Source: an uncultured Candidatus Saccharibacteria bacterium (lineage in GTDB: Bacteria; Patescibacteriota; Dojkabacteria; J137). Taken from it: a stretch of 64,000 nt of DNA. The stretch's first letter is position 1; each line of letters starts with the position of its first letter. Shown one piece after another: positions 1 to 39,389 of this stretch. Both the position numbers and the translations under genes were made by a program. Location: contig CAZUKH010000001.1 in the NCBI GenBank assembly GCA_964620955.1, positions 190,810 through 254,809 on the forward strand. Reading direction: 5' to 3'. Below the pieces are notes generated by a model. The model had not been told where the DNA came from. It searched no databases and saw only the letters and a program-made list of their open reading frames with translations.

Positions 1-846
1 GAGCCTGTTGAACCCCAAGAAGAGGTCAATCCAGTAGAAGAAGGAGAAGAAATAGCTCCAGAGCCAACTATTCCACCAGCTCCTCCTTTTAATCTTGGTT
101 ATGAACCCGAAACAGACCTAACAGAAAGAGAATTTATTCTTTGGGTTTACGATATAGGCACAAGAGAAAAGGTATTCGAATTAAAGGATGGAGATGTTAT
201 AGATATTGCCAACATGTCTTCGAAAGACATTTCAATTGTCGTTGATATTTATCCTGGCACCAAAGGGAGTGTTAAGTTTGAAGACTCTGGAGGTTATTTT
301 TATAAAGAGAACTTCGCACCTTTTTCTATTGATGGCGAGTATCACTGGAATAACCAACTACCGGAACCCTGGGCATACCAGCTAAGGGACTACTCACTTA
401 CAGTTACTGCCTACGCTCTAAAGAATTTGCAAGGTGAAATAATAGGAAGAAAAGATATTAACTTTTCTATTGTAGATACTTCAACAAGGGTTGTTCCTAT
501 TCCAGATAATCAAGAAGAAGATTTAGTTATTGAAGAAAAAAGTGAAACATATGACACTACTTCGGAGTCTTCTGATATTTCGTTTCTTCTCGATTTGGGT
601 ATACAAGCTGGGCAGGAAAACAGTGATGTTTCTGCTCTTAAATCTATACCTTCTGTTTTAGGTGTTGAGACTAGAACAACCCTAGAGTCGCAAGAAACTT
701 TGCCTAATACCGGCATTACGCTTAACGAAACACTTATAATTGGTATGTTAATAGTTCTTTTGGTTTTCGAAATCAATGCACTTGGTGCAGAAAAAAAGTT
801 TTTTACCTGGCTAAAAAAAACTGTAAAACGAAGAAGTATTGATTAA
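1..846 (+). CDS. LPXTG-anchored surface protein, C-terminal part (5' end cut by window start)
   Basis: Frame-1 ORF is open from position 1. The C-terminus carries LPNTG, then a hydrophobic stretch (TLIIGMLIVLLVF), then a basic tail (KKTVKRRS), which is a classic sortase sorting signal. Confidence 0.7.
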   Translation, partial: EPVEPQEEVNPVEEGEEIAPEPTIPPAPPFNLGYEPETDLTEREFILWVYDIGTREKVFELKDGDVIDIANMSSKDISIVVDIYPGTKGSVKFEDSGGYFYKENFAPFSIDGEYHWNNQLPEPWAYQLRDYSLTVTAYALKNLQGEIIGRKDINFSIVDTSTRVVPIPDNQEEDLVIEEKSETYDTTSESSDISFLLDLGIQAGQENSDVSALKSIPSVLGVETRTTLESQETLPNTGITLNETLIIGMLIVLLVFEINALGAEKKFFTWLKKTVKRRSID

Positions 847-10643: not shown

Positions 10644-11291
10644 TTGCATATGGAAGTAGAGCAAAAACCAAAAGGACTTTCTTGCCGTAAAGCCGGTTGT
10701 TTTTTTGTTTTTTTTATAGCCGCCTGCTGTATTTTGCTTGCAGGTGTACTAACTTTACGTCCTTCTTTTCTTTGGATTCCTGTCGCAAAAGTATTAAATG
10801 GAAATACCACAATTAACAAAGTTTCCCAGGAAAGCATAGACGAAGCTCGTCAAAATGTAGTAAATCAAATAAAGCCTATTGATAATCTTGTAATCAAGCT
10901 AGATGAACAAACTTTTTCAACGTTAGTATCGGACAAATTCAAAAACCTTGGGAGTGTGAGTGCTTCGTTATCAGAAAATAAAATTGAAATATTTTGGATT
11001 ATTGATCAAACTTTTAGCGAATCACCAATAATAGGCCTTATTTCTTTTGATACTTCTAACCCTAATCTTGTACTAAGTCATTTTGGAACTGCAGGTATAA
11101 ACACACCTACACAGTTATCGTTTCTTTCTAAGCTGATTATTGTTCCTTTGCTTGGGCAAGACTTTGAAATGTTTTCTTCAGCAGAGTTTGTTTTACAGAT
11201 TATTGCACCTAAAGCAGAATTTGAAGCTAAAAGCATAACGGTTAAAGACGATTACTTAGAGCTTATTGTTAATGCCGCACTTTATGATTAA
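10644..11291 (+). CDS. hypothetical membrane-anchored protein
   Basis: N-terminal TM segment followed by a soluble domain. No recognisable family. Confidence 0.35.
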   Translation: MHMEVEQKPKGLSCRKAGCFFVFFIAACCILLAGVLTLRPSFLWIPVAKVLNGNTTINKVSQESIDEARQNVVNQIKPIDNLVIKLDEQTFSTLVSDKFKNLGSVSASLSENKIEIFWIIDQTFSESPIIGLISFDTSNPNLVLSHFGTAGINTPTQLSFLSKLIIVPLLGQDFEMFSSAEFVLQIIAPKAEFEAKSITVKDDYLELIVNAALYD

Positions 11292-12207
11292 ACTTTTTGA
11301 CGGGTCGGACAATTATGAAAGCTATAAAGCATGTAAATCCTACGCCAACGAGATTTCTAAACAAACTTCTCGCACAATAAAAGTTATAAATGCAGATGAA
11401 GTACGTGATATTTCCGAGGTTTTTGCCATATTTGAGGGTTTAAGCCTTTTTGCAGAAGAAAATATCTTATTACTAAAGAGATTATTTTTAAATAAGACTC
11501 TTATAAATCAAGTTACAAATAACTTTGAGTCACTGGATAAAAACCACGTTATTTTGTGGCAAGACAGCAAGGCAGATGGCAAACTCAAACTTGTAAAAAA
11601 ATTGAAAAGTCTCGGACGAATCTCAACATTTGAAGAGCTAAAACCTTGGCAACTCGAAAAGTGGTTAATTAACATAGCTAAAAAAGCAGGTATAGAAGTA
11701 TCTAAAGAAGTTGCTTCTTTTTTGTTTGTTAGTTCATTATCTAATAAAGCTTTACTAGTAAACGAACTAAGTAAATATAAAATACTTCTTGGTAGTTTAG
11801 GCAAAAATAAGCTAGAAAAAGAAGATATTATGCTTTTGTGGGGCGGAAACTTAAATGGAGATATTTGGGAGTTTTTAGATATGTTTGCAGCCCGGGATAA
11901 AAAATGCATATTAGAAATGGAAAAGCTATTAAAAAGTGAAACTTCTATACAATATTTAATAGCCATGGTTGCAAGAGAGTTGTCACTAATTTTACGGATA
12001 AAAGAATACGAAAAAGAAAATGGAGATTTTAAAGACTTAAAGCTACATCCTTTTGTTTTACAAAAGACCATAAAAAAAGCTCAAAACTTTTCTTTCTATG
12101 AAATAGCGGAATTGCTGCAAAAACTTGTTATTACAGATATGTCAATTAAAAAAGGTGAGTTAAAAGATACTACGGCATTTAGAATATATGTTACAACTAG
12201 TTTTTAG
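11266..12207 (+). CDS. holA: DNA polymerase III delta subunit
   Basis: About 310 aa with a HolA-like N-terminal clamp-loader fold pattern (ELKPWQLEKWL...) and C-terminal helical domain. Moderate similarity only. Confidence 0.5.
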   Translation: MLMPHFMIKLFDGSDNYESYKACKSYANEISKQTSRTIKVINADEVRDISEVFAIFEGLSLFAEENILLLKRLFLNKTLINQVTNNFESLDKNHVILWQDSKADGKLKLVKKLKSLGRISTFEELKPWQLEKWLINIAKKAGIEVSKEVASFLFVSSLSNKALLVNELSKYKILLGSLGKNKLEKEDIMLLWGGNLNGDIWEFLDMFAARDKKCILEMEKLLKSETSIQYLIAMVARELSLILRIKEYEKENGDFKDLKLHPFVLQKTIKKAQNFSFYEIAELLQKLVITDMSIKKGELKDTTAFRIYVTTSF

Positions 12208-12227
12208 TATAATAAAAATATTTCAAT

Positions 12228-13466
12228 ATGATCAAGATAACTAACTTTACTACAAAGTTTTTTTTAGGTTTACTATCATGTATAGCCCTATGCCTGTGGC
12301 TTGTGAATGTTGTTAATGCTCAGCAAAACTTGCAGGTAGTAACTCTTAAAGATGCTGGAATAGATGAATCGCTGGCAAGAGAAGATATTAACTATACTCT
12401 ACCTACTGATGTAGTTATTGTTCCTGTTAATTATCCAATTAAGCAAAAAACTTTAAACTCTACAGATCTTTATAGAGGTATTTATTTTTATACAGTTGAG
12501 GTTTTAGGTTTTAATGATATCCCTTTTCACTACCTTGTGGGTGAAGATGGAACAATATTTAAAGGCAACACTGGAGGAGATGAACGGAGAATAAGAATTA
12601 GTGGTGTGGGAGAAAGCATGATTGTTATTGGTTATATTACTGATTCTTCCTCAACAAAATTTAGTTCAAGAGCACAGTTAGCGCTTGTAAAAATTATTTC
12701 AGATGTAGTTAATCGTAATTCAATTAATCCTGACAATATCTTTGTTGATGGGGTTGAATTCGTAAGAAATTTGAGCACCAAAAGTGTTTCATTAGTTCAA
12801 AAAGATATTTTTGGAACATGGGGTACCTCTATTGAAGAGATTAAATCTCAAGTTAAACCACTGTACGCACCTATTGCAAAAAGTTATAAGGCTCAAGTAG
12901 ATAACGTTATTTTACCGACAGACCCTGTTAGTCCAGGCTCTGTAGTTGAAGCCAAAATTAGTATTTCGAATTTAAGTTCCAATGGTATGTACGCTGGCAC
13001 GGATTCTGCTCTTATTTTAAGTAAAATTGACGGTACACCAAGCGCATTCTTTTTGAATAACGAGTGGGCAAGTATTTCGCAGGCAAGTTTAATGGATAAT
13101 GATGAAATACTACTTCCTTTCCAAGAGGGCCAATTTAGTTTTAATATTAAAGTACCTTTGTTTCCAGGAGGTCTTTCCGAACAGTTTGAACTACGGACAT
13201 TAGATGGAAGGAAAGTAGAGTCTAACCCTGTAACTATAGCTTTGAACATTGGCCCTGCATCAAGGCAGATTGTGGAAATAAGAAGTAGTGTTGTAAATGC
13301 AGTAGATGTTAAGTCACAGCCTTCGAGTAGTTCGGCCACTGTAGGGCAGGTTTCGGCAGGACAAAGGTTTTATTATGTTTCAGAACAGGATAATGGATGG
13401 CTACAACTAGAGCTTTCAGATGGTACTCCTGGCTGGATTGCAATATGGTTTGTAAATTTTATTTGA
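12228..13466 (+). CDS. secreted protein with C-terminal SH3b-like domain
   Basis: Signal peptide, and a C-terminus (SATVGQVSAGQRFYYVSEQDNGWLQLELSDGTPGWI) resembling a bacterial SH3 domain. Confidence 0.5.
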   Translation: MIKITNFTTKFFLGLLSCIALCLWLVNVVNAQQNLQVVTLKDAGIDESLAREDINYTLPTDVVIVPVNYPIKQKTLNSTDLYRGIYFYTVEVLGFNDIPFHYLVGEDGTIFKGNTGGDERRIRISGVGESMIVIGYITDSSSTKFSSRAQLALVKIISDVVNRNSINPDNIFVDGVEFVRNLSTKSVSLVQKDIFGTWGTSIEEIKSQVKPLYAPIAKSYKAQVDNVILPTDPVSPGSVVEAKISISNLSSNGMYAGTDSALILSKIDGTPSAFFLNNEWASISQASLMDNDEILLPFQEGQFSFNIKVPLFPGGLSEQFELRTLDGRKVESNPVTIALNIGPASRQIVEIRSSVVNAVDVKSQPSSSSATVGQVSAGQRFYYVSEQDNGWLQLELSDGTPGWIAIWFVNFI

Positions 13467-13472
13467 AACTAA

Positions 13473-14261
13473 ATGAAAAAATTATTTTTTTATGTTCCAA
13501 TACTAGCGATTGTATTTTTACTGGGTCTTTTTTTGTCCATGTACTTTGGTGAGGCAAATGGTGGGGTAAGCAATGTAAGGGTTACTAATTTAACTAGCAA
13601 TTCAGTAACTATAAGCTGGGAAACAAAACAGCCTGGATTTGGTTCAATAGTTTACTCAAAAGAAGATTTCTTTCCTGATTTTATTGGTAAGTACATTGCC
13701 AAGTACCGTGAACATGATGATAGAAATGTTTCGAAAGATTTAGAAGAGAGTGGTAGGGTAAATTTAACAGAAAATTTTGATGAGTCTAAAGCTCAAGAAA
13801 GAAGAATTCATCACGTTACTATAAGCGGTCTTGAAGCCGAAACAACTTACTTTTTTAGAATAGATGGCAATATTAAACTTATTAATCCCGAGGTTAACTC
13901 TTTTACAACTCTTTCACAAAACTTGCTAGCTAATGAACCCGACCCTGTTTACGGTTCGGTAATAAATTACATGGCTAACCAAAAAAATCCAACAGATGGA
14001 ATTGTCTACTATCGGGTAGTGAATAAAAATAATGATCAAATTACTTCACAGTGGTATTCAAGCATAATAAAAAATGAAAATTGGAGCGGCGACTTATCGA
14101 AAATGGTAGATACCCTCGGGCAAGTTGTAAACTGGAACTCTTCTGATTATTTATTAAATGTAGAAGCAAAAACCCCGGAAGGAGAGGGAGGGCAAAACTT
14201 AACGTTAGAAACTTACAAACCAATTGAAACAATTATAGTAAATATTAGATATATACCATAA
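13473..14261 (+). CDS. secreted FN3-like (purple-acid-phosphatase N-terminal type) domain protein
   Basis: Signal/TM, then VRVTNLTSNSVTISW...ETTYFFRI, an FN3-like beta-sandwich signature. 6-nt gap to the upstream gene. Confidence 0.5.
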   Translation: MKKLFFYVPILAIVFLLGLFLSMYFGEANGGVSNVRVTNLTSNSVTISWETKQPGFGSIVYSKEDFFPDFIGKYIAKYREHDDRNVSKDLEESGRVNLTENFDESKAQERRIHHVTISGLEAETTYFFRIDGNIKLINPEVNSFTTLSQNLLANEPDPVYGSVINYMANQKNPTDGIVYYRVVNKNNDQITSQWYSSIIKNENWSGDLSKMVDTLGQVVNWNSSDYLLNVEAKTPEGEGGQNLTLETYKPIETIIVNIRYIP

Positions 14262-14263
14262 AC

Positions 14264-16129
14264 ATGAAAAACTTTATTAAACCATTAGTTTTACTATTTG
14301 TTTTGGGGTTTTTAACTGGCGTTATTTTTACTGGTATAAAATTCTCGATTAATGTAGAGGCTGGCAGTGCAATTGAAAATGGCGTGCCTGTTTGTCTTTC
14401 ACCTTACTCAGAATCTTGTGGAGATGGTTGTAACAGGCAAGTAAATTGTGGTTCCAACAAAGAATTTAGACCAGGTCCTTGCGAGTGTTCTAACCCAACA
14501 CAACCTCAATGCCCAGTAGCAACTATTTGGGATGGTAGTACTTGTAAAGGTACTGCTCAAGGTACTAAAGATGAAACGAAAGACCAGGATCCAGTAAAAG
14601 ATGGTGGAGAAAAAGTTGCACCCAAGGCAGCCAAGCCAGCTGATCCAAAAACGCGCGATGAGGCTAATAAGGTAGTTGCTGGTGGTGGTAGTAGTGCAAC
14701 AGGCAGCCAGGGGCAAGGAGTACCTGCAACACCTGTTACCAACCCAGGAGCTTCATGCCCTAACGGAACCTCTCGTTTTACTACTGATAATATTTGCTTA
14801 ACAGAGTGCCCACAAACAAACTGTTTAGCAGATAGCGCTGGAGAAACAAGGTGCTGCCAGCATAGTTCGGAGCCAGGGGGAGATGCTGAAATATCAACTA
14901 ATGAATTAACAGTCTGTCCTCTTACCTTTCATTGTGACGGAACTATTTTTGCAAATTCAGGAAACAGTAGCACAGGAGGTGCTATAAACATATGTTCATA
15001 CATTTTACCTACTGATTCTAGTAGGTCTTTTGGGGTTACACCACAAGTAATCAACAGCGTACAGACATGTGATGTTTTGATAGACCAAGTTAGTGCAAGT
15101 AGTGGTGGAGAAGCTTCCTTAGGCAGTCAAGAGGTACCTGTTGAAATTGCACAATCAATACTAGAACAAAACTGTGCAAGTAAAGGATATAATATGAGGA
15201 CAGATATCCCAAACTATTGCGAATACGATTGCCCAGTGGATCCATACCGTAATCCTGCATTTGCAACAATTTTAGGTGCCGTTCCATGCATTCCAAATGA
15301 TGCACAGGGACAAAACACAAAGCTACCTAGATTAACCAATTTAATCCCTAAAGTTTCTGCACAGGCAGCACCTCCTTTACCACAAACAATTAATCCAGAA
15401 GATTTAGAAAAAGGAGTTTATGTAATAACTATTCCTGGGTATAAAAATGTTGAAATATCTATACTTTACGGAAACTTAAAACTTAAGTATTTTGTAGATT
15501 CTAATGGTGACGGAGTAAAACAAACCGAAGAAGAGTATCTTGATTTAAGTGATTACGAAGTCAGTGTTGCCAAAACATCCTCTATTAACACTTACCAATT
15601 AGATAAAGGGTGGAACTTAGTTGGTCTTAACTTTGTTTCAGAGGATTTAAGCACAGCATCTAAGCTGCTGCGTGAATTAATACGACAAAATGTAGAATCA
15701 GTTCAACTAACAAAATATGATAGTGGTAATTGGATACACTTTGTAATGCGGATTAGCGACAAAGGTGAAATAATAACCTACGGAAACGACTTTACGCTTG
15801 TACCAGGAGAAGGTTACTTTTTAAGAACTTTAAACGAAGGAGCCGTATCACTTGCTGGAAACAGTTTTACAAGTAATGTTCCTGTAAGCTTTGTGCCAGG
15901 ATGGAATTTAATTTCTATACAAACTATACAACAATATACCGCGCAAAGCTTTTTGGAGTTTTGCAATACCCAATCTTTAAATTGCGAATCAATAAGCAGG
16001 TTTGTGGATGGCTTATACGATACCGTAGTAAAAAAAGAATCAAAATATTTTGGAAATATATTTAACATAGAAGACACTAAAGGATATTTTGTTCTTAATA
16101 ATGAAGGACAAAAAGTAATTACACCATAA
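14264..16129 (+). CDS. large Cys-rich secreted/membrane-anchored protein
   Basis: N-terminal TM, a Cys-dense module (CLSPYSESCGDGCNRQVNCGS...CECSNPTQPQCP), a G/S/T/P linker and a large beta-rich C-terminal region. Confidence 0.5.
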   Translation: MKNFIKPLVLLFVLGFLTGVIFTGIKFSINVEAGSAIENGVPVCLSPYSESCGDGCNRQVNCGSNKEFRPGPCECSNPTQPQCPVATIWDGSTCKGTAQGTKDETKDQDPVKDGGEKVAPKAAKPADPKTRDEANKVVAGGGSSATGSQGQGVPATPVTNPGASCPNGTSRFTTDNICLTECPQTNCLADSAGETRCCQHSSEPGGDAEISTNELTVCPLTFHCDGTIFANSGNSSTGGAINICSYILPTDSSRSFGVTPQVINSVQTCDVLIDQVSASSGGEASLGSQEVPVEIAQSILEQNCASKGYNMRTDIPNYCEYDCPVDPYRNPAFATILGAVPCIPNDAQGQNTKLPRLTNLIPKVSAQAAPPLPQTINPEDLEKGVYVITIPGYKNVEISILYGNLKLKYFVDSNGDGVKQTEEEYLDLSDYEVSVAKTSSINTYQLDKGWNLVGLNFVSEDLSTASKLLRELIRQNVESVQLTKYDSGNWIHFVMRISDKGEIITYGNDFTLVPGEGYFLRTLNEGAVSLAGNSFTSNVPVSFVPGWNLISIQTIQQYTAQSFLEFCNTQSLNCESISRFVDGLYDTVVKKESKYFGNIFNIEDTKGYFVLNNEGQKVITP

Positions 16130-16131
16130 AA

Positions 16132-17154
16132 ATGTCGAATCAACAAAAGAGGACAATCCTTTCGTTTCTTTTTTTAGTGCTTATGGTGCTGGCTATTGCT
16201 GCTTTTGCTGTAGCCGCTTCGTTAAACTCAGATGTGTCTGTAGATTTTGAAGTAGGCATAGCACCTCAAGAATTAGTTATAAGCAACGTTACTCAAAACG
16301 GCTTTACTGTATCTTGGGTGTCGCAGGAAGCAGAGCAAGGGCTTGTTAAATACGGGTTAGAAACAACTTTACTAGCTACAACTGCTATAGACTTTAGAGG
16401 GGAAGAATCTTCAACACTACACTATGTAAGAATAACAGATCTTGACCCTGCTACCACTTACTATTTTGAAATTTACTCGGGCAATACTGTATTTAAAAAT
16501 AATAATCTATACTTTTCGCAATCAACACTTGGAAATGAAGCATCATTGGGAACGCCAGAAAGCATTACACTCACCCTACCAGAAACTTTTACTGAAGGAA
16601 TCATTTACGCATATGCCTCAAATGGAATTCAAACTTCAACAATTGCGTCTTCCATTGCGTCATCAAACTCAGCACTTATTGATGTTTCAACTCTTAGAGA
16701 TCCAACTACGCAGGAGCTTTTTGATTTGACACTGTCACAGGTAAGGATACACGTTACCAGCGATCAACTATTACGCGCAGTAGATACACTAGCAGTAGGT
16801 CAACAAGATTTAACAATAAACGAACTTAGCTCAGAAACCTCAGCGTTTTTAGTTCCCGAAGTATTTGCAGTTGATTTACCAACACCTATTGAAGAGCCAG
16901 AAGAGGAAGAACCTGTAGAAGAAGACATTGTTGAAGAAGATCCACGCGTAATAGAAGAAGAACCAATAGCACAAAACCCAGCTCCAGTAATAATTCCCCA
17001 ACAACTTCCTCCTGCATCTCAACAGCCAGTTGTTGTTGCAAACAGCAGTCCTTTACCTTCAACAGCAATTTCAACAGGCGAACTACTTATTGGACTTAGT
17101 GGGTTGGGACTACTCGTTGTTGGAATAGCCCTTAAAAAGAACTCTAGTCTTTAA
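16132..17154 (+). CDS. FN3-like surface protein with LPSTA-type sorting signal
   Basis: FN3-like N-terminus (FTVSWVS...ATTYYFEI), an acidic E/P linker, and a C-terminal LPSTA + hydrophobic segment + KKN tail. Confidence 0.5.
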   Translation: MSNQQKRTILSFLFLVLMVLAIAAFAVAASLNSDVSVDFEVGIAPQELVISNVTQNGFTVSWVSQEAEQGLVKYGLETTLLATTAIDFRGEESSTLHYVRITDLDPATTYYFEIYSGNTVFKNNNLYFSQSTLGNEASLGTPESITLTLPETFTEGIIYAYASNGIQTSTIASSIASSNSALIDVSTLRDPTTQELFDLTLSQVRIHVTSDQLLRAVDTLAVGQQDLTINELSSETSAFLVPEVFAVDLPTPIEEPEEEEPVEEDIVEEDPRVIEEEPIAQNPAPVIIPQQLPPASQQPVVVANSSPLPSTAISTGELLIGLSGLGLLVVGIALKKNSSL

Positions 17155-18448
17155 TAACATTTTTAATAGCTTTACAAAGCTCTTCTGCCCTTTTTTCACT
17201 TATATTGATGCTCGTAGGCAAATTTAATACAACTTTACAGTGATTTATTGTATTTGGAGTTAATGCTGGAATATAACAAAGTCGTTGATAAGTTGTATCG
17301 TTAACTGTAGAACCATAAAGTGGAATCGCAAACCAGTTACCAAGGGTAACCCTTTCTTTTCTCGCAATATTCCAGACTGCCAGCCTTTCCTCTGCATTCT
17401 TTAAAAGCACAGGATATCTTAAATAAACTCTGTTTGAATCTGTATCTGCATGGTCAGAATACTCTATTAAATACTTGTCATAAATAGAAGCTATTTTACT
17501 TCTATGTTCATTATACTTTACTAGTTTAGTAAGCTGCTTAATGCCTAGTCTGGAAAGAGCGGGAGACATTTTTGCAGGAAACCAGTCCGGTTTTATTGCC
17601 ATATTTTCAACTTTTTCAACCATTATCCCTAAAAACCCCATTTTCCTCCAAACATACCTTATTGCTGCACCAATTGTAAATCTCCCGACTCCAACAGAAT
17701 GAAGAGGTATAGCTACCCACCAAAAAACAGGGTTTAGAAGTGATATAAAAGTTTTAATAAAAGGAAAGTTCGGAAGAGTATTTATAAAAGGAGAAATCTT
17801 AAAATAAACTTCATCTGAATTAGTAATTATTGCCCCTCCGCGCACTGAAGAAATAACCTTTTCAATACCAAAAGTTAAAAAGCCTGCATCTCCCCTTACT
17901 TGAATATTGCTTTCTATTAAATGGGCAAAATCTTCTAGGATAAAAATATCTTCCCTCCCAATGAGCGAAAGCTTTTGCTTAATAGCATCTACATCTACTA
18001 GCTTTCCAAAAGTATGTTGAACCACAATTGCCCTTGTTTTAAAGTTAATTGCTTTTTCCAGTTGAGAGTAATCAGGGTTAAGATCACTTTTATTTGAATC
18101 AAGGTAAACTGGGGTTGCACCTGTCCAACTTATTGAATTTGCAACTACAACACATGTAAATGAGGGTGCTATTACTTCGTCACCTTCTTTTAAACCTAAA
18201 GATTTTAATAATACATACAATGCCGACCTTCCAGAATCAACCAGCTTAACATGACCAACATTAAGGATTTTTTTTAAACTTTCTTCAAATTGAATATTAA
18301 AGGTTTCTAATGCCCATGTCCATGGAGTAAACAAAACTTTTAATGCAAGTAATACATCACCCAACTGCGTGTTTGGAGAAGCTGCAGTAAAAATAGATTT
18401 TTTTAATTTCATAAAACAAATATAACATCGATTGAATAACTCATCCAA
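17144..18448 (-). CDS. DegT/DnrJ/EryC1/StrS family PLP-dependent aminotransferase
   Basis: FILEDFAH segment and the SF..GxEKxxxxxxGGAIITNSDE Lys-motif characteristic of the DegT family. Confidence 0.65.
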   Translation of the reverse strand: MDELFNRCYICFMKLKKSIFTAASPNTQLGDVLLALKVLFTPWTWALETFNIQFEESLKKILNVGHVKLVDSGRSALYVLLKSLGLKEGDEVIAPSFTCVVVANSISWTGATPVYLDSNKSDLNPDYSQLEKAINFKTRAIVVQHTFGKLVDVDAIKQKLSLIGREDIFILEDFAHLIESNIQVRGDAGFLTFGIEKVISSVRGGAIITNSDEVYFKISPFINTLPNFPFIKTFISLLNPVFWWVAIPLHSVGVGRFTIGAAIRYVWRKMGFLGIMVEKVENMAIKPDWFPAKMSPALSRLGIKQLTKLVKYNEHRSKIASIYDKYLIEYSDHADTDSNRVYLRYPVLLKNAEERLAVWNIARKERVTLGNWFAIPLYGSTVNDTTYQRLCYIPALTPNTINHCKVVLNLPTSINISEKRAEELCKAIKNVIKD

Positions 18449-18459
18449 AATTTATACAT

Positions 18460-19392
18460 TTACCTTTTAAAATAACTGGCAAACTTAAAAAGTAAGTATT
18501 TAAACTTGTTTGAAACAATGTCTATCGAATCCAGGTACTCAATAGGAATGCCTCCAAACCCAAGTTTGTACCTTGAATAACCTGTTTCTTTATCTTTTGT
18601 TAAACCCCAAAAGTCAAAGACTTTACAATTATTTTCTTTTGCCCAAAGCATAGATTTCCAGGCATGAAGGTAAGAAGCTTTTAAACCATTCCCTTTTTCA
18701 ATTGATCCACCATAAATTGCATAAAATACGTTTTTATAAATTACACTAAACCAGGCTACAATTGGTTTACCTTCAAAAACCGAAGTAACAATCACTGGTA
18801 TTGCTTGGTCATCTTTTTTTAGTGTTTTCCATACTTTTTTAAGATACGTTGTAGATCTCCCTGTAAATCCGTATCTCTTTTGTATAGTAGAGTATATTTG
18901 TAGAAAGTTGTTAAAAGAAGAATCTTTTGAGTCAAAATTTACTGTAACTCCTTTTTTTTCAGCTCTTCGAAAATACTGCCTGTGAGGAGGACGAACATCG
19001 TTGTAAAGCTCTTCTACACTTTTTGTCAAATCAAATAAAAGGGTTTCTTTGGGGTGAATGTTTTTTGCAGGAAAAAAGTTAGAAGGCTGTTTAAATTTAA
19101 CCTCTTCAAAAAAGCAGTTTAAGGGATCAACTCTTACTGCAAAACATCCGCTATTATTTACAGCATTTTGTGCATCTTGGGTGCTAAACCTTGTCCAATC
19201 CAGCTTTGGTACATACCCAAATTTACCCAACAAAGGAACTTTATTAATCTGGATCCAAAATCCTTTTGCTTCATAAATATCATTACCTTGTACTTTCCTT
19301 ACTTCTTTCCAGGCATCAGACTGTAAAAAATGATTTTTTGTATTTTCAATTATATTTTTAATATCTTTCTTTTCTATAGATGTAGTTGTCAT
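18460..19392 (-). CDS. FemAB-family peptidyltransferase (peptidoglycan bridge formation)
   Basis: N-terminal FLQSDAWKEVRKVQG matches the FemABX signature (FLQSxxW...K..G). Confidence 0.6.
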   Translation of the reverse strand: MTTTSIEKKDIKNIIENTKNHFLQSDAWKEVRKVQGNDIYEAKGFWIQINKVPLLGKFGYVPKLDWTRFSTQDAQNAVNNSGCFAVRVDPLNCFFEEVKFKQPSNFFPAKNIHPKETLLFDLTKSVEELYNDVRPPHRQYFRRAEKKGVTVNFDSKDSSFNNFLQIYSTIQKRYGFTGRSTTYLKKVWKTLKKDDQAIPVIVTSVFEGKPIVAWFSVIYKNVFYAIYGGSIEKGNGLKASYLHAWKSMLWAKENNCKVFDFWGLTKDKETGYSRYKLGFGGIPIEYLDSIDIVSNKFKYLLFKFASYFKR

Positions 19393-20443
19393 AAAGTCTG
19401 TTTAGTTTAAACTTTAAAAAGTTTGAAGAAGTTTCATAAGTACCTAAATAAGATACCATTTTTCCTTTAAACTTCATTTTAAAATCCGCAACACCTCTCC
19501 ATGGGTGATTAATCCCTTTTGGAATTACGCCCCAAAAATTATAGTTTTTAAAACCCTCTTGAATAGCCTTAGCAGCAATAGAGTAGTGTAAAAAATATGG
19601 GGAAGCAATTTTTGAAAGAGCAACATCAGAGGTAGATGCACCATGGGAATAATTTACTGTATCTTTATAATAATTTATTAAAGCTGCCGAAACTGGTTTA
19701 TCTTCATAATAAGCAATCCAAATTCTTGTTAAAGGATCTTTCATTGCTTTTGGCCCGAGATGTTTCCATTGTGCAACATAGTAAGAATCGTGAAAGTTTT
19801 CGAACTTTTGCCTTATCTTTGTTTGACGTGTAAGCTCAATAAAGGCAAATAGGTCTTTTTCTTGCATTGCTTCTTTTACCTGAATACCAATTTTTTTTCC
19901 TCTTTTTATGTAATACCTTGTTTCTTTGGGTTGCATTTGAAGAAGCTCTTTGTCCGATTTTGGAAGTTCCATAATCCAAGTGTGCTTGGCTTGGCCTAGA
20001 GCATTAGACTTTTTCCAACCACTTCTTTCTATTTCAAAAAAAAACTTTTTATCAACAGGCGGATCTATTCTAAATAAATTTAGTGGGTTGAGTCTACAAT
20101 ACTCATCGGCAAAGAGTTTAAGTTTTTTATAAAACTTTTCATAAATTTCTGCATTATTTACTTCCTTGGAGATTTCCTTAATTTTACTAATATCCAATAC
20201 AGGTCCATAAGGAAGATAAGCATATTTTGAAATTTTTCTTTTAAATATTTCTAAATAAAGATTTCCAACGGGTTGATTGTTCAAATATACCAAAAAAGTA
20301 TCGATTTTTTTATTAATGCTTTTTTGAAAATTAATCCAGTGCCAGGAAGTTAAAAAAGTACTGGAAAAAGCGTTTGTGTTCACCTCTTCCCAAAGAGGAA
20401 ACTGTTCATCCAACAATGGTACTATATCGAAATCCAAATACAT
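19358..20443 (-). CDS. FemAB-family peptidyltransferase (paralog)
   Basis: FLTSWHWINFQKS and YLPYGP motifs of the FemABX family. Overlaps the downstream paralog by 35 nt. Confidence 0.6.
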   Translation of the reverse strand: MYLDFDIVPLLDEQFPLWEEVNTNAFSSTFLTSWHWINFQKSINKKIDTFLVYLNNQPVGNLYLEIFKRKISKYAYLPYGPVLDISKIKEISKEVNNAEIYEKFYKKLKLFADEYCRLNPLNLFRIDPPVDKKFFFEIERSGWKKSNALGQAKHTWIMELPKSDKELLQMQPKETRYYIKRGKKIGIQVKEAMQEKDLFAFIELTRQTKIRQKFENFHDSYYVAQWKHLGPKAMKDPLTRIWIAYYEDKPVSAALINYYKDTVNYSHGASTSDVALSKIASPYFLHYSIAAKAIQEGFKNYNFWGVIPKGINHPWRGVADFKMKFKGKMVSYLGTYETSSNFLKFKLNRLYDNYIYRKERY

Positions 20444-20459
20444 AATTTTTCTTAATCTG

Positions 20460-21611
20460 CTATGAATCTCTTCTCATTGGCATCACTAGGTGAACAAACT
20501 GTGGATCATCATTGTCTTTGAAAACCGATGCAGCTAATGGACCTTTGCTTTCAAAAATAATTTTGTCTCCCTCCAAGTGATTAACCACATCTTGAAGATA
20601 TCTCAAAGTATACGCTGTATTAAGATCTGTGTCAGCAGAAGCGTTTGTTACAGCAATATGAGTACTACCTTCACCTACATCCGTTACTACTGAGCTTAGT
20701 GTAATCTTTGATTGCTCTACATCAAAATCAAACAAAGTTTTATTTCCTAAATTACCTCTTGCGAATGTATTAACAATTTTTATCGCATTTTCTATTTCTT
20801 TCTTTTTTATTTCAAATGTAAAAGAATAATCATTAGGCATTATTCTTTTGTAATCTGGGTAAGGTCCTTCGAGCAAGCGCACGCTAAATTCGGTATCCTC
20901 AAATTTAAAAACTAGTTGTGAGTTAGTTTCGCTTAAATATACTTCAAGATTTTCTATATTTGGGTAGTCTGCCAATATTTTTACAAGCTCCATAAGGTAC
21001 CTGGCGGGCACAATTATTTCAGATTTATCTTTTGAAGTAGCTGCTTCTTTAACCTGAGAAATTCTTTTAGAAAGCCTAAACCCATCCAGCCCTACAAAGT
21101 TAACTTCAGATTTTTCTTGCGAAATTTCGAACAAAACTCCAGATTGTTGAATTCTACCTGAAGAAAGATCGGTAGAACAGGCAAAAAGCGTTTTATTCAT
21201 GCTTTTAATAAACTCAATACATGCAATTTTAAAAAGTAGTGTTTTTGCAGTTGGTAATACTGGGTACTCTTCTGCAGGCATTGTAGAAAATGTGCCTTTT
21301 GATGAGGCAGTAATTACATTAACACTATTTTCTTTTAATGATAGTGTAAGGCTTTCTCCATTTTCACTGCTTGCACTTACAAAGTCAGATATGTACTTTG
21401 CATTTACAGTAGTGCTTCCTGCAGTTTCTACCTTGCCAGGTATCCACATGTGAATCCCCATGTCCAGGTTTGTAGCAGATATCTCAACTGAAGACTTATC
21501 TACTTTTAGCATTACATTTGAAAGTATAGGAATATTTGGTTTTTGACTAACAGCTCTACTTGCGTATGTTAGTGCTTTAGATAATACTTTATGATTAATT
21601 TGTATTTCCAT
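20460..21611 (-). CDS. dnaN: DNA polymerase III beta sliding clamp
   Basis: 383 aa with a three-domain clamp pattern. The N-terminus (KALTYASRAVSQKPNIPILSNVMLKV) is typical of DnaN. Confidence 0.9.
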   Translation of the reverse strand: MEIQINHKVLSKALTYASRAVSQKPNIPILSNVMLKVDKSSVEISATNLDMGIHMWIPGKVETAGSTTVNAKYISDFVSASSENGESLTLSLKENSVNVITASSKGTFSTMPAEEYPVLPTAKTLLFKIACIEFIKSMNKTLFACSTDLSSGRIQQSGVLFEISQEKSEVNFVGLDGFRLSKRISQVKEAATSKDKSEIIVPARYLMELVKILADYPNIENLEVYLSETNSQLVFKFEDTEFSVRLLEGPYPDYKRIMPNDYSFTFEIKKKEIENAIKIVNTFARGNLGNKTLFDFDVEQSKITLSSVVTDVGEGSTHIAVTNASADTDLNTAYTLRYLQDVVNHLEGDKIIFESKGPLAASVFKDNDDPQFVHLVMPMRRDS

Positions 21612-22022
21612 ATCTATATATTTATTTAAATAGAAGTTAATAGTATTTAGGCAATGTATTTATGTGAGTAAATATTTGCTTTTCTTGATTATACCAGCTA
21701 AACAGTTATTGTACAGTTGTGGAAAACAGGGTGGAGTAAATATCTTTTGTTTTTGGTTATAGCCATATACACTATTGTATTTTTACAAAAACAGAGTGGA
21801 AAGTTTTTTGCTAAGTTTTGAATAACTTAATTAAGGTAAGTTTTTTAGAAAAACTTCCTATTATAGAACTTTCAACAATAAAAAATTTGTACGTTATTCC
21901 TAAGTAAAAGTATGTATCTAATCCTTTTTTTACTTACCCACATGTACACATAAGAGGTAATTAAATTTGACTAATATAAATAAGTTAGCTATATTTTTAC
22001 TATAAATATTATTTACAAAAGT

Positions 22023-22295
22023 ATGGCAATTGATGTTGAAAGTTTTTCTCCAAACGATCCTTCCAGTGTGAGTTCGCATGCATATAATCCACTTGAAACC
22101 GTTCCAGTATCACCTTATTCATATGAAGGCACTCCTGATAACCTAACAGACGTTGATGATGTTCTGAGAGGTGTTACTTCTTTGCAAGCAATAATAATGA
22201 TGAGAATAATGATTACTACAGGTACTTTTAACTCCACAGAACCGTATTGTCAAAGAATTCTAGAAATTGCACAGGGAGCAGTTTTAGAACAATAA
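22023..22295 (+). CDS. small acidic hypothetical protein (Lys-free)
   Basis: 90-aa ORF in the dnaA-dnaN spacer, on the opposite strand to its neighbours, locally higher GC, with no Lys in an otherwise Lys-rich proteome. Ends in LEQ. Confidence 0.25.
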   Translation: MAIDVESFSPNDPSSVSSHAYNPLETVPVSPYSYEGTPDNLTDVDDVLRGVTSLQAIIMMRIMITTGTFNSTEPYCQRILEIAQGAVLEQ

Positions 22296-22375
22296 GAATC
22301 CCTTGCCTGCCGCCAGTCTAAAGTCAAGGAGATTAAGATCAGTTTTTAATAAATTTTAATTATTATTTTCTCATT

Positions 22376-22588
22376 ATGGACAACAGTACAGCATTAAATT
22401 CTTACCAAAATCCTTTAGTATATTGTGTCAAGCCAATAGAACCAGGTACGGACTACTCCAATCAAGAAGCTGCTTTGAAACATTTCATTCGAACCCCAGA
22501 AGGCATTAAGTTCATGCAACTTTACCCTGAATTTTTAGATAGCTTCAGACTTTTTAATATAGAACTCCCAGCCAGGTTAGAGCAGTAA
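22376..22588 (+). CDS. small hypothetical protein
   Basis: 70-aa ORF immediately downstream of the previous one. Also ends in LEQ. Confidence 0.25.
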   Translation: MDNSTALNSYQNPLVYCVKPIEPGTDYSNQEAALKHFIRTPEGIKFMQLYPEFLDSFRLFNIELPARLEQ

Positions 22589-22617
22589 TTCCTGCTACCA
22601 TGTATAACTTTACTTTG

Positions 22618-24021
22618 TTACTCAATATCTTCTGTAACAAGTGCGCTTTCATTAATTGCATTAATGATGCCTGTAATTTGAAGGTTAAACTCATCTTGCA
22701 GCATCATTTTGCTTTTAATTTTATCAATAGCATGCAGTACTGTTGTATGATCTTTTCTATTTAAAAAATTAGCAACCTCTTCCAGCTTATAGTTAAACTC
22801 TTCACGTAAAATATACATAGCAACTTGTCTTGCAAGTGCAAGCTCTTTCGTTCTTCTTGGACCCTTAATGTCTTTAACAGGAACATTAAAAGATTTAGCT
22901 ACCTCTCTTATTACTTTAGGAATTTTAATTTGTTCTCTTTTAGTTGCAGAGTCTTTACCAATCATGTGAGCAACTTCTTCTAAAGTTAGGTCTCCATTCG
23001 GTTTCATTTGGTTAAACAAAGAAACTTTTTGTAATGCACCTTCAATTTCTCTAACATTGTCACTTACTGCCCTGGCAATAAATTCTAGGATTTTTGGCTG
23101 TAAATCTACTGCCATTTCATCTGCTTTTTTTTGAACGATAGCAAGCCTCATTTCATAATCAGGCTGCGATATATCTACAACCATTCCTCCCAACATTCTG
23201 CTTTTTAGTCTTTTTTCAATACTTTTTATATCTTCAGGCCTTCTATCGGCAATTATAATTATTTGTTTTCCTGCGTTGTAAAGCTCGTTGAATGTATTAA
23301 AAAATTCATCTTGCGTTTGTACCCATTTAGAAATTAGCTGCATATCGTCAATTATTAAAATATCTACAGCTCTGTACTTTTTTCTAAATAAATCCATTTT
23401 GCTGGATTTTATACCGCGGACCATTTCGTTGAGGAAATTTTCGGAAGTGGTGTAAACAATTTTTTTAGTGAGATTTCTTTCTAAAACACCTCTTCCAATT
23501 GCCTGTGCCAAGTGAGTTTTGCCAACGCCAGTTTTACCATGGATAAACAAGGGGTTATATACTGTACCTGGTTTTTCGATAACTGCCAGAGCAGCCGCAT
23601 GGGCCAGCCTATTTGCGTTACCCACAATAAAGTTGCCTAAAGAGTATTTAGTGTTTAGTCCCGATTCTTCAATAGATTGAATTAAAGACCCCATTATTCC
23701 ATTTTCCATGTCAAAAAGTGGGTCTTTGTTAGAGTTTAAAGAAGAATCATTTGAGTGTGTTTCAACGTTACTCACTTTAAACTCGGGGGTAAGATTTTGG
23801 CCGTAAACATAAGAAATTGTTTCTTTAATTAATTTCTCATGTCTCATTTTTAGCCAGTCTGCTGTGTATGGGTTTGGAACAGCTATGACTGCCTTTTTGC
23901 CATCAAGCTGAATAAGTCTGGTATCTGCAAAAAATGTTTGAAACTGTGCAGGTGCGTCAAGTTTTACTTCAATTTGAGCTAGTGCTGTTTTCCAAAGTTT
24001 TTCCGGCTCTTTAATATTCAT
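22618..24021 (-). CDS. dnaA: chromosomal replication initiator DnaA
   Basis: AAA+ Walker A GKTGVGKTHL, sensor motifs and a C-terminal DNA-binding domain (HTTVLHAIDKI). Confidence 0.95.
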   Translation of the reverse strand: MNIKEPEKLWKTALAQIEVKLDAPAQFQTFFADTRLIQLDGKKAVIAVPNPYTADWLKMRHEKLIKETISYVYGQNLTPEFKVSNVETHSNDSSLNSNKDPLFDMENGIMGSLIQSIEESGLNTKYSLGNFIVGNANRLAHAAALAVIEKPGTVYNPLFIHGKTGVGKTHLAQAIGRGVLERNLTKKIVYTTSENFLNEMVRGIKSSKMDLFRKKYRAVDILIIDDMQLISKWVQTQDEFFNTFNELYNAGKQIIIIADRRPEDIKSIEKRLKSRMLGGMVVDISQPDYEMRLAIVQKKADEMAVDLQPKILEFIARAVSDNVREIEGALQKVSLFNQMKPNGDLTLEEVAHMIGKDSATKREQIKIPKVIREVAKSFNVPVKDIKGPRRTKELALARQVAMYILREEFNYKLEEVANFLNRKDHTTVLHAIDKIKSKMMLQDEFNLQITGIINAINESALVTEDIE

Positions 24022-24799: not shown

Positions 24800-26638
24800 A
24801 TGAAAATCACGAGATTAAGGCCAGTTGTGGTTGTTGGTTTAGTTATTTTATTAATTTTAGGTTCCACAATAGGACTGGTAGCTTTAACTTCTCCGACAAT
24901 TACAGATAATGGTGATGGAACAAGTACTTTTTCAAGCTGTTTTGATTTAACTAATTATATTTCTGAAAATAGAAGTTATTATGGAGGATATCCAGCCCCT
25001 TTGTCAGATTCGATTACCTCAAATAGTAAAGAGATTGCCGAGTCATCAGGTGCTGGTTCTTCTGACTATTCAACTACTAATATTCAAGTCGAAGGTGTTG
25101 ATGAATCTGATATTGTTAAAAATGATGGCAATTCACTCTTTGTGTTTGCTTCTGAAAATAAATACATTGATGTTTTTGATTTAACAGATCCCTCAAATCC
25201 AAAGAAAGCCTCAGAAATTGAGCTAGAGTTTTATGGTCAGTCTATGTATCTTGTTAATGAAACTTTGGTAGTAATAAGCAGTGAGTACTCTTATCAACCC
25301 TTAAAGGTTTCGGCTAATTTCTGGAATCAATACTCAATTGCTCAAATATTCGACGTTTCAAATTTAGAAAGCCCCCAATTGGAAAGTACATATTACTTAG
25401 ATGGATATTATGTTAACTCGAGATTAACTGATAACACTTTGTATTTAATTTCATCAGCTAATGTAGGTGAAATAGACTTATTGAGCGGAGTAGAAGGAAA
25501 CATCCCTAGAATTTCTATAGCGGATGGATTAAGTGAAAATCTTCAAACTAAAAGAGCTTCGGAATGTTCCGAAGTCACCCCTATGGGAGATTCAGCTTAT
25601 AGTTTTCTTACAGTTGCAGCAATTCCACTTGATGGTTCTGAGTTTAGTTCTAGAGTGATTTTAGGAGATTCTTCAAACATGTATGTTTCAAGGAATAACA
25701 TTTACCTTACTACTCAAGTGCTTCCTTATGAAAATGCAGCCAATCCTGATATTCCAATACCTGTTCCTTCCTATGACTGGGAGCCAAAAACAGAAATATT
25801 TAAGATTTCAATGGATGGTACAAAAATTTACTTTAAAGCAAAAGGTCAGGTTGATGGTACAGTTTTAAATCAGTTTTCAATGGATGAATACTACGGGTAC
25901 TTTAGAATAGCAACAACTAAAGGTACTACAACAAGAGACTTTTCGAGCTCTTTATATGTCTTTGACGAGCAAATGAATTTAACAGGGCAAGTTAATGGAC
26001 TTGGTAAAACTGAGCAAATTTATTCAGTAAGATTTATGGGTGAAAAAGCCTATGTTGTTACTTTTAAACAAACTGACCCACTTTATGTTTTAGATCTTGT
26101 TGATCCTTCAAACCCTAAAGTCGCAGGGGAACTTAAAATACCAGGTTTTTCAAGATACCTTCATCCATTTGATTCTAATCACTTGATTGGAGTGGGCAAT
26201 GATGCCGACGAAAACACAGGAACGACTTCTGGGGTTAAAGTTACTCTTTTTGATGTAACTGATATTGCTGATCCAAAAGTTAAAAGCGAACTTATATTTG
26301 GTGGAAGATTATCGGATACTCCTGTTTCATGGGATCACAAGGCGTTTCTTTTTGACAAGCAAAAAGAGCTACTTGTATTACCAGTAAATATTTATAATGA
26401 AAGTGAAGCATACTATTATCAACCTGATTTTGAAGGTTTTATAGTAATGAGTGCAAACCTTGCAGAGGGGTTAGTCGAAAAGAAACGCATAGATTTCAGT
26501 GAAGATACTTCTTACTACTCCAATACGCCAAGGTCGTTATACATAGGAGATTATTTATACTTGATATTTAATAATGAAATAAAAGTAGTTGATTTGAAAA
26601 ACTACTCAGTGGTTAAAGAGATTTCTGCTTTTGTTTAG
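24800..26638 (+). CDS. secreted beta-propeller domain protein
   Basis: Signal anchor, then a long beta-rich region with the YSVRFMGEKAYVVTF...DPLYVLDL motif typical of the secreted 'beta propeller' family found in archaea and CPR. Confidence 0.5.
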   Translation: MKITRLRPVVVVGLVILLILGSTIGLVALTSPTITDNGDGTSTFSSCFDLTNYISENRSYYGGYPAPLSDSITSNSKEIAESSGAGSSDYSTTNIQVEGVDESDIVKNDGNSLFVFASENKYIDVFDLTDPSNPKKASEIELEFYGQSMYLVNETLVVISSEYSYQPLKVSANFWNQYSIAQIFDVSNLESPQLESTYYLDGYYVNSRLTDNTLYLISSANVGEIDLLSGVEGNIPRISIADGLSENLQTKRASECSEVTPMGDSAYSFLTVAAIPLDGSEFSSRVILGDSSNMYVSRNNIYLTTQVLPYENAANPDIPIPVPSYDWEPKTEIFKISMDGTKIYFKAKGQVDGTVLNQFSMDEYYGYFRIATTKGTTTRDFSSSLYVFDEQMNLTGQVNGLGKTEQIYSVRFMGEKAYVVTFKQTDPLYVLDLVDPSNPKVAGELKIPGFSRYLHPFDSNHLIGVGNDADENTGTTSGVKVTLFDVTDIADPKVKSELIFGGRLSDTPVSWDHKAFLFDKQKELLVLPVNIYNESEAYYYQPDFEGFIVMSANLAEGLVEKKRIDFSEDTSYYSNTPRSLYIGDYLYLIFNNEIKVVDLKNYSVVKEISAFV

Positions 26639-35168: not shown

Positions 35169-35181
35169 TTTATAAAAAACT

Positions 35182-38756: not shown

Positions 38757-39389
38757 ATGTATTTTCCTAATGTTCTCCCAAGCTACTCGCATAAGGTACT
38801 TGATTTTATTATGCTAAATGAACATTTTTCAAGCTTTTACCTAGCAGGTGGAACTGCATTGGCTTTACAAATTGGCCACAGAGAATCTATAGATTTAGAT
38901 TTTTTTACTCAAGAAAATTTTAATGCAAACATTATATCTTCTTTTACTAAATTCCCTTTTGTTGCAAATACCTTGCAAAACAATAATATTAGCTTAATTG
39001 CAAACGATACTAAAGTTACCTTTTTATACTGGCCTTTTCCTAAGCTTAAAAATTTAGTTACGATTGGGAATGTGAGGCTTTTAAATCCACAAGATATTGG
39101 GTTATTAAAGCTATTGGCTCTTCAAGGCAGGCATACACGAAAGGACATAATTGACCTGTATTTTATAGATAAAGAGGTAATAACTTTTGAATCACTTTTT
39201 GAATTATTTGAGAAATATTACCCTAAGGAGAGTTTTAATATTTTTGGGAGTGTAAAAGAGTTATTTGATGACTCACTTTTACAAAAGCAACCAATGCCAA
39301 AGATGTTTAAAGAAGTAGAGTTCGAACTGTGTTTAGATTATGTTCAAAAAAAAGTTGCCGCGTGCTTAAAAGGGCTTATTAAATTGTAA
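38757..39389 (+). CDS. nucleotidyltransferase, AbiEii/AbiGii toxin family
   Basis: FYLAGGTALALQIGHRESIDLDFF is the AbiEii family signature. 210 aa. Confidence 0.6.
   Translation: MYFPNVLPSYSHKVLDFIMLNEHFSSFYLAGGTALALQIGHRESIDLDFFTQENFNANIISSFTKFPFVANTLQNNNISLIANDTKVTFLYWPFPKLKNLVTIGNVRLLNPQDIGLLKLLALQGRHTRKDIIDLYFIDKEVITFESLFELFEKYYPKESFNIFGSVKELFDDSLLQKQPMPKMFKEVEFELCLDYVQKKVAACLKGLIKL

Follow-up and report, generated by a model that had tools for sequence, protein, structure and literature searches.

Do four tightly packed genes for exported proteins build one surface structure, and is that structure assembled by a sortase? The question is raised by a stretch of 64,000 nucleotides with a low G+C content (~0.34) from contig CAZUKH010000001.1 (positions 190,810 to 254,809; hereafter the window). 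Four open reading frames (ORFs), here called P1 to P4, follow one another on its plus strand: P1 at 12228-13466 (412 amino acids, aa), P2 at 13473-14261 (262 aa), P3 at 14264-16129 (621 aa) and P4 at 16132-17154 (340 aa). A first-pass annotation of the sequence had described four same-strand genes separated by 2 to 6 nucleotides (nt), and the coordinates, with gaps of 6, 2 and 2 nt, bear this out. It had also treated the four as a single functional unit that might form an adhesin complex or a pilus-like structure together with a sortase and an LPNTG protein at the start of the window. The reading that we lean towards is a different one. The locus would consist of a P1 unit followed by an optional P2-P3-P4 cassette for an adhesin tethered to the cell wall, which is not a pilus, the function being read from sequence.

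Related loci came from metagenome-assembled genomes labelled Candidatus Dojkabacteria (WS6), a lineage of the candidate phyla radiation (CPR). Loci are cited here by L numbers (L019, a distant one, is NPID01000369.1). Homologues of P1 to P4 in these other genomes were intact, shared 30-50% identity and kept their order, which argues that the four are real genes and not chance ORFs. A single hydrophobic segment was found at the N-terminus of each of the four proteins; P4 contains another at aa 312-336. The initial assignment of all four to the exported or surface proteins agrees with these export segments. Display of P2, P3 and P4 at the cell surface is very probable.

Comparison of the related loci separated P1 from the other three genes. 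A gene for a transmembrane (TM) protein, holA and P1 on the plus strand, a variable stretch, and a convergent DegT-FemAB-FemAB-dnaN run on the minus strand were found in this order in all relatives retrieved, and wherever the upstream flank was available (10 genome loci), P1 lay directly 3′ of holA. The interval between P1 and the DegT gene varied among relatives. At this variable spot the cassette occurs in about five lineages (the window, L001/L005, L002, L008 and L012) and is absent from at least six (L003/4/9, L006/7, L010, L013, L016 and L017). Nothing lies between P1 and DegT in L006/7, the closest relative by P1 identity (50%). L003/4/9 carry a 117-aa gene instead of the cassette, L010 and L013 have unrelated genes in the variable spot, and FemAB comes next in L016 and L017, which have no cassette. 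Since P1 is always retained behind holA and the presence of the cassette varies independently of it, the four genes do not constitute one unit, and the proposal of a single functional unit did not hold. P1 belongs to the conserved core, is coupled genetically to holA and has no specific tie to the cassette. The surface-protein genes P2-P3-P4 are dispensable and form a unit of their own.

The cassette of L012 (11206-14409) was disrupted. Frameshifts occurred in its P2 and Cys-rich parts, the C-terminal domain contained two in-frame TGA codons, one of them at the position of a conserved Gly, and the P4 homologue was cut short by an early TAA; the neighbouring holA and P1 were intact. This copy is either a decaying pseudogene or a product of poor co-assembly. 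Code-25 recoding of the TGA codons was set aside, because the same locus carries frameshifts and premature TAA stops. In L005, a 401-aa gene (15115-16320) without export signal or Pfam match lies between the P3 and P4 homologues. Band_7 and other genes follow this region before DegT, and the variable spot gathers unrelated cargo.

Within the cassette, P2 and P3 belong together. P2 starts with a hydrophobic anchor or signal (N-terminal 22 aa), continues with an FN3 domain bearing a large insert (aa 32-146; Pfam Pur_ac_phosph_N/fn3, 3.7e-11, 43.9 bits vs 30) and ends with a second β-domain (aa ~150-262). We refer to this arrangement as module A. Its profile matched FN3 structures at 1e-10, in agreement with the earlier description of P2 as FN3-like. 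In L008, a single ORF of 1184 aa comprises a P2-type N-terminus (TM, FN3), a Cys-rich region and a P3-type C-terminal domain. Moreover, among the 150 proteins that matched the P3 C-terminal domain best, 102 begin with a fused P2 module (P2 positions ~2-257). Together with L008, they identify the fused form as the common architecture. The split form was found in three species, represented by the window, L005 and L002, and P3 has its own signal peptide there. Since the split is conserved and is accompanied by a new signal peptide and a new Cys-rich domain, it represents a stable, derived condition and no artefact of sequencing. Judged from these alignments, P2 and P3 derive from one ancestral gene, of which each represents a half.

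The large FN3 insertion of module A contains a conserved DDRD … HHVT signature, in which D82 and H113 are invariant across P2-type and P4-type modules; it may be a metal or ligand site. P2 and P4 were not accepted as purple acid phosphatases: their matches are confined to the FN3-like N-domain, and they have no metallophosphatase domain.

P3 proved to be a Cys-rich protein of 621 aa (24 Cys), as had been reported before, and matched no Pfam or NCBIfam family. Its signal peptide (14264-14368; hydrophobic segment aa 3-31, with the cleavage site placed between SINVEA and GSA) is kept in the split forms of L005 and L002. The alignment of the split forms delimits an N-terminal Cys-rich domain and a subsequent Lys/Pro-rich segment (14369-14671), with eight invariant cysteines (C44, C52, C56, C62, C73, C75, C83 and C94). 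In tblastn searches, P3 aa 3-136 matched L001/L005 and L002 only, and not the fused L008. The middle of the protein (14672-15325) is variable and rich in Gly/Ser/Thr and Cys. This region, of which the alignment consists mostly of gaps, is hypervariable in length, the whole proteins ranging from 621 to 941 aa among relatives, and the Cys content of family members is 2-6%. The architecture deduced for the family is an N-terminal anchor, FN3, a β-domain, a hypervariable disulfide-rich middle and a C-terminal domain of ~265 aa.

This C-terminal domain (15326-16129; aa 355-621 of P3) is the hallmark of a large un-annotated family of no fewer than 1377 clusters, which is absent from Pfam and NCBIfam. 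A word-indexed protein search returned two relatives for P3 and none for P4, so that an exhaustive profile search was needed. With HMMER, P3 aa 355-621 matched 1377 clusters (50% identity) at E≤1e-3, of which 805 reached E≤1e-10 and 223 reached E≤1e-30. The domain ended no more than 12 aa from the end of the protein in 149 of the 150 best hits. It begins with a small β-subdomain, which carries a calcium-loop-like DxNGDGxKQxxE motif with an invariant D…E pair and gave weak matches to Pfam SdrD_B in 5 of 44 family members. Two tandem repeats of ~80-95 aa follow, each running from GWNL to FGNDF.L.PGEGYF, and these are homologous to one another (hhalign 99.6%, E 4.5e-24). AlphaFold2 with a 44-sequence alignment modelled the domain at a pLDDT of 91.8 and a pTM of 0.85; a model of full-length P3 from a 3-sequence alignment (pLDDT 35.7) was discarded.

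Neither a sequence match in the PDB nor a Pfam family was found for the C-terminal domain, and Foldseek searches of the model against PDB and BFVD returned nothing below E 0.01, with TM-scores of ≤0.19. The tandem Gly-Trp repeats of about 80 aa at the C-terminus and a possible non-covalent retention at the surface recall the GW modules of Listeria InlB and Ami. However, Pfam GW matched neither P3 nor the 44 family members, Foldseek found no match in the PDB, and the predicted repeat (β-α-β4-5) is not visibly SH3-like. A relationship to GW modules was rejected for lack of a sequence or fold match. The family has expanded locally in another lineage: L019 (3987-16222) has three fused paralogues in tandem (1076, 1041 and 914 aa) and behind them, in convergent orientation, a P4-like protein of 619 aa. 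L021 also contains three tandem copies. The literature that we searched contained no description of this domain family or of an LPST[A/S/D] signal in CPR bacteria. Peribacteria and other CPR bacteria have large, signal-bearing, Cys-rich and strain-variable extracellular proteins, for which a role in attachment has been proposed (PMC4736985). These resemble the P3 family by description, but no domain family was described there.

P4 combines a second copy of module A with a sorting signal. Its first part (16132-16851) contains a single N-terminal hydrophobic segment (aa 5-37, putative cleavage AVA/AS), an FN3 domain (aa 44-120) and a second β-domain (aa ~130-240). Pfam fn3 (2.4e-6) and Pur_ac_phosph_N (1.4e-8) were matched (35.6 bits vs 30; 28.1 vs 25). 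A direct BLASTP comparison of P2 and P4 was marginal (8e-4) and covered FN3 alone. A hidden Markov model (HMM) of the P2 module matched P4 over positions 5-220 (E 1.3e-21), spanning the TM segment, FN3 and the second domain, and matched P4 homologues with E-values down to 3.5e-43. The P4 homologue of L019 contains two module A copies. By these profile matches, P4 is a paralogue of the P2 module to which a stalk and a sorting signal were added. A P4-like gene was found beside family members at six to seven independent loci, namely in the window, L005, L002, L008, L012 (start only), L019 and L020.

The C-terminus of P4 reads ...EPEEEEPVEEDIVEEDPRVIEEEP...SSP-LPSTA-ISTGE-LLIGLSGLGLLVVGIAL-KKNSSL. 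It comprises an acidic, Pro-rich stalk (16852-17052, aa 241-307) and the sorting signal (17053-17154), in which LPSTA (17053-17067, from aa 308) is followed by ISTGE, a hydrophobic stretch of 17 aa (17083-17133), KKNSSL and the stop codon. The FN3-like domain, acidic stalk, LPSTA, hydrophobic segment and KKN tail listed in the first-pass annotation were all recovered. The succession of motif, hydrophobic stretch and basic tail is common to P4 and its homologues. In six sequences [L/I/V]PxT[A/S/D] stands 0-5 aa ahead of the TM segment, as LPSTA in the window and L019, LPSTS in L002, LPSTD in L020 (from a convergent partial ORF), IPDTA in L008 and VPKTA in L005, the exact LPST being present in four of the six. 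The adjoining stalks, acidic in the window and Pro/Thr-rich or made of PV repeats in the homologues, could not be aligned. Conservation of the motif beside unalignable stalks points to selection on the motif. From stalk composition, the joint probability of the motif arising by chance is ~6e-16, a rough value that treats the sequences as independent. The tripartite layout and the recurrence of the motif in six sequences thus uphold the initial reading as a variant sortase signal. A rhombosortase/GlyGly-CTERM system was also considered and rejected, because P4 lacks a GG motif and the rhomboid of the window scores below the rhombosortase cutoff. This rhomboid-family intramembrane protease (44600-45319; Pfam 3e-29) reached 37 bits with TIGR03902, against a cutoff of 84.

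A candidate enzyme for P4 is encoded at 839-1462 on the plus strand (Pfam Sortase 2.3e-27), and this gene, 11 kb from the cassette, is the only sortase gene in the 64-kb window. It is placed beside its own substrate gene (1-846, plus strand), whose product ends in LPNTG-ITLNE-TM-KK, so that the sortase/LPNTG pair noted previously at 1-1462 is real. The ORF of the substrate is open to the first base, so that the protein of 210 aa read from ATG 214 is probably cut short by the window. The LPNTG protein and P4 are the only two candidates for a sorting signal in the window, and the spacers behind their motifs are alike (ITLNE and ISTGE). In the sortase sequence the catalytic His (AAHR), Cys (TLYTC) and Arg were present, and neither a DP[WFY] lid nor a C-terminal TM segment was seen. 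The protein passed the generic model TIGR01076 (72.8 bits vs 39.35) and remained below all class cutoffs (class C 77/160, class E 68/160, class D 59/165). Its best match in the PDB was a class C enzyme (1e-13), Clostridium perfringens SrtD matched at 3e-10, and it is about equally far from class C, D and E structures. No sortase was found within 10 kb of the cassette in the relatives. Sortases are enriched in CPR bacteria (PMC6744442). Signals ending in Ala or Ser are known from class D sortases, with LPNTA for B. anthracis SrtC and LPDTA and LPDTS in B. subtilis YfkN and YhcR, respectively (PMC8225981). Like these Bacillus substrates (including BasH and BasI of B. anthracis, both LPNTA), P4 has an Ala-ending pentapeptide, a hydrophobic stretch and a basic tail, and its genome, as far as the 64-kb window shows, has one housekeeping-type sortase, whose gene lies apart from that of the substrate. 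The differences are the class D score of the window sortase (59 vs 165 bits), the CPR host and the unrelated passenger domains.

P1, the conserved neighbour of the cassette, has a signal peptide (putative cleavage …VVNA/QQ), a PGRP/Amidase_2-like domain without zinc ligands (aa ~40-175), a β-rich middle domain (aa ~215-345) and an SH3b domain (aa 358-405; Pfam SH3_3 6e-8, 33.2 bits vs a cutoff of 27). The signal peptide and the SH3b-like tail had been recognised before. The Amidase_2 match (PF01510) was sub-threshold (E 0.006, 17.3 bits vs a cutoff of 26). Twelve relatives of ~400 aa each were collected, with 25-50% identity, all but one 41-50%, and the profile of this family of 13 proteins matched PGRP-SD (3e-6) and PGRP-Iα (9e-6) in the PDB with its N-terminal domain and the SH3b of 4krt (5e-8) with its tail. 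The near-invariant Pro66 stands where the first PGRP zinc-ligand His should align, the sole invariant His, H101, is the non-ligand His of a DIPFHY motif, and the family alignment contains no conserved Cys. Because the zinc-binding His/His/Cys triad is missing from the family, an amidase function of P1 was rejected, and the N-terminal domain is considered to have a related fold without being a curated Amidase_2 member. In this respect P1 resembles the non-catalytic PGRPs (PGRP-SD, PGRP-SA and PGRP-Iα); its N-terminal domain aligns with them at E 3e-6 to 1e-5 and lacks the amidase zinc ligands. In contrast to them, it is bacterial, is fused to a β-domain and SH3b, and has lost all three ligand positions and not the Cys alone. 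P1 is best read as a secreted, lineage-wide protein that would bind peptidoglycan without cleaving it as an amidase. Given its PGRP/Amidase_2-like domain, P1 is an exception to the statement that none of the four proteins has an assignable function, which went too far in this case.

How might the products of the cassette work together? P2 would hold module A on the outer side of the membrane. P3 would be exported by means of its own signal peptide and would re-associate with P2 through the new Cys-rich N-terminal domain, which we place on the probable side. P4 would be cut after Thr311 by the sortase of the genome and joined covalently to peptidoglycan, in the manner of class D LPxTA/S substrates, and processing of this kind is fairly likely. 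Pairing between the modules A of P2 and P4 would give the adhesin a wall-bound, covalent footing; this contact is rather doubtful. For the C-terminal domain of P3, the leading candidate role is that of a distal, working end with which a conserved ligand on a partner cell would be bound. This role falls somewhat short of an even chance, and retention on the own envelope is nearly as likely. The prediction of which proteins touch was derived from the P2-P3 fusion and the P2-P4 paralogy. As a whole, the cassette probably encodes an attachment device and not a pilus. It resembles MSCRAMM/Sdr adhesins in the signal peptide, the Ig/FN3-like β-domains, the low-complexity stalk and the C-terminal sorting signal, as well as in the weak SdrD_B-like calcium-loop motif of the P3 C-terminal domain. 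It differs from them in that P2 and P3, which make up the large ligand candidate, carry no sorting signal of their own and the anchored protein P4 is small. Furthermore, Cna and SdrG-type domains are missing, and the components are encoded by several paralogous and split genes.

Several observations weigh against a wall-tethered adhesin. The proposed contacts were drawn from sequence comparison, and the N-terminal segments of P2 and P4 (~21 aa, often without an AxA site) are ambiguous between cleavage and anchoring. The LPXTG_anchor model TIGR01167 did not match P4 or four homologues at E≤1, the substrate next to the window sortase carries LPNTG and not LPSTA, a 304-aa P4 homologue in L020 has neither stalk nor signal, and no P4-like gene neighbours the family members of L018, L021 and L023. 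Part of this would be expected if the C-terminus of P4 were a mere transmembrane tail anchor, with LPSTA incidental or otherwise used and no sortase action. Such an anchor would also account for the fact that position five of the motif is never Gly and that one homologue has VPKTA. But the complete tripartite layout, the position of the motif directly before the TM segment beside stalks that cannot be aligned, and the proven or accepted use of LPxTA and LPDTS by Bacillus sortases make it unlikely. The strictly C-terminal placement of the conserved P3 domain, which fits retention in the envelope equally well, concerns the other end of the model. The domain may hold the protein on peptidoglycan, an S-layer or a secondary polymer, like GW, SLH or CWB2 modules, and expose the Cys-rich middle as the functional part. 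The tandem repeats with their Gly-Trp signature, the conservation of the domain next to a hypervariable passenger region and the lack of another visible anchor in split P3 favour this view. Yet the domain shows no sequence or Foldseek likeness to GW, SH3b, SLH or any wall-binding module in the PDB, most family members are already anchored in the membrane by their N-terminus, and the conserved N-terminal domain of the split forms could dock to P2. Retention is a possible reading, though on balance a doubtful one. A more far-reaching version of the adhesin model seems improbable to us. In it, episymbiotic CPR bacteria would attach to their hosts mainly through adhesins of this family, and the C-terminal domain would be a new fold for recognition of a conserved feature on the partner envelope. 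P4 would be a doubly anchored tether with an uncleaved N-terminal membrane anchor and a sortase-made peptidoglycan bond, which through its paired paralogous module would couple the adhesin base mechanically to the wall.

Two further readings fared worse. In a sortase-polymerised pilus, a pilin-specific sortase would link P2, P3 and P4 to one another, head to tail, as pilins. Pilin signals can indeed begin with a residue other than Leu, as IPDTA and VPKTA do, and the best PDB and NCBIfam matches of the window sortase are class C, though weak and below the cutoff. However, the sorting signal is present on P4 alone, and a regular-expression scan for the YPKN pilin motif, a search for the E-box (YxLxETxAPxGY) and a Pfam search for CnaA, CnaB, SpaA and FctA domains found none of them in P1 to P4. 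The search for pilin motif and E-box had been suggested as a check along with the pilus-like structure itself. The lone sortase, 11 kb away and below the class cutoffs, has no lid or C-terminal TM segment and no counterpart near the cassette in relatives. SpaA-type pili share with P4 a sortase signal on a small β-domain protein and the I/V-PxT variants, but they possess the pilin Lys motif, the E-box, CnaA/B domains and a dedicated lid-bearing sortase that are missing here. With no defining motif present, the pilus was rejected and is hardly credible. Only slightly less improbable is one machine of four genes, in which P1 would act as an amidase and open the wall for insertion of the other three. 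The 6-nt gap between P1 and P2 and the weak Amidase_2 match of P1 speak for it, but the P1 family lacks the catalytic zinc triad, P1 occurs without P2-P4 in at least six lineages including the closest one, and a P1 family of 13 proteins contrasts with the huge family of P3.

The surroundings of the locus place it in a defined context. The co-directional gene run begins upstream of P1 with genes for a 215-aa TM protein and holA (DNA polymerase III δ; Pfam DNA_pol3_delta_C 3.5e-13) at 10644-12207 on the plus strand, followed after 20 nt by P1. A perfect TATAAT lies ~14 nt before the P1 ATG within this 20-nt holA-P1 spacer (12205-12227), and no Shine-Dalgarno-like sequence was found ahead of P1, P2, P3 or P4. 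The right border of the variable spot is the convergent gene for a DegT-family aminotransferase (17144-18448, minus strand; Pfam), which overlaps the 3′ end of P4 by 11 nt. Beyond it, two FemAB genes, dnaN and dnaA follow on the minus strand (run 17144-24021). Adjoining this run, the cassette is situated near the replication origin and beside likely cross-bridge builders. The two FemAB-family peptidyl transferases probably build the peptidoglycan cross-bridge, which is the expected sortase acceptor.

Further secreted proteins are encoded in the window. A 612-aa secreted β-propeller protein (24800-26638; Pfam Beta_propel, 8e-147) has a homologue in a similar position near yidD and dnaA in L006/L007. 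Adjacent proteins of 734 and 878 aa (32964-37818, plus strand) contain pectate-lyase-like β-helix, alginate-lyase-like and CBM6/CBM35 domains and resemble secreted enzymes for the degradation of polysaccharides. Possible remnants of defence systems or mobile elements are an AbiEii-type nucleotidyltransferase toxin fragment (38757-39389) and a YhcG/DUF1016 PDDEXK nuclease (63221-63994).

A life attached to other cells is assumed for CPR bacteria, but almost nothing is known of their means of attachment beyond type IV pili. The locus links a huge surface-protein family that is absent from Pfam and NCBIfam, a C-terminal domain of this family that has no neighbour in the PDB, and an LPST[A/S/D] signal. 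This conserved non-canonical signal occurs in a phylum in which sortases are enriched and their substrates are uncharacterised. Should the proteins prove to serve ordinary wall-anchored adhesion, the gain would lie mainly in annotation: a domain family would be newly described, and the gene model would be corrected to one split gene (P2 and P3) and a separate unit (P1). The specificity of the sortase, binding by the C-terminal domain and the pairing of modules are testable targets in what is a set of sortase-linked surface proteins of a CPR lineage, built from un-annotated domains.

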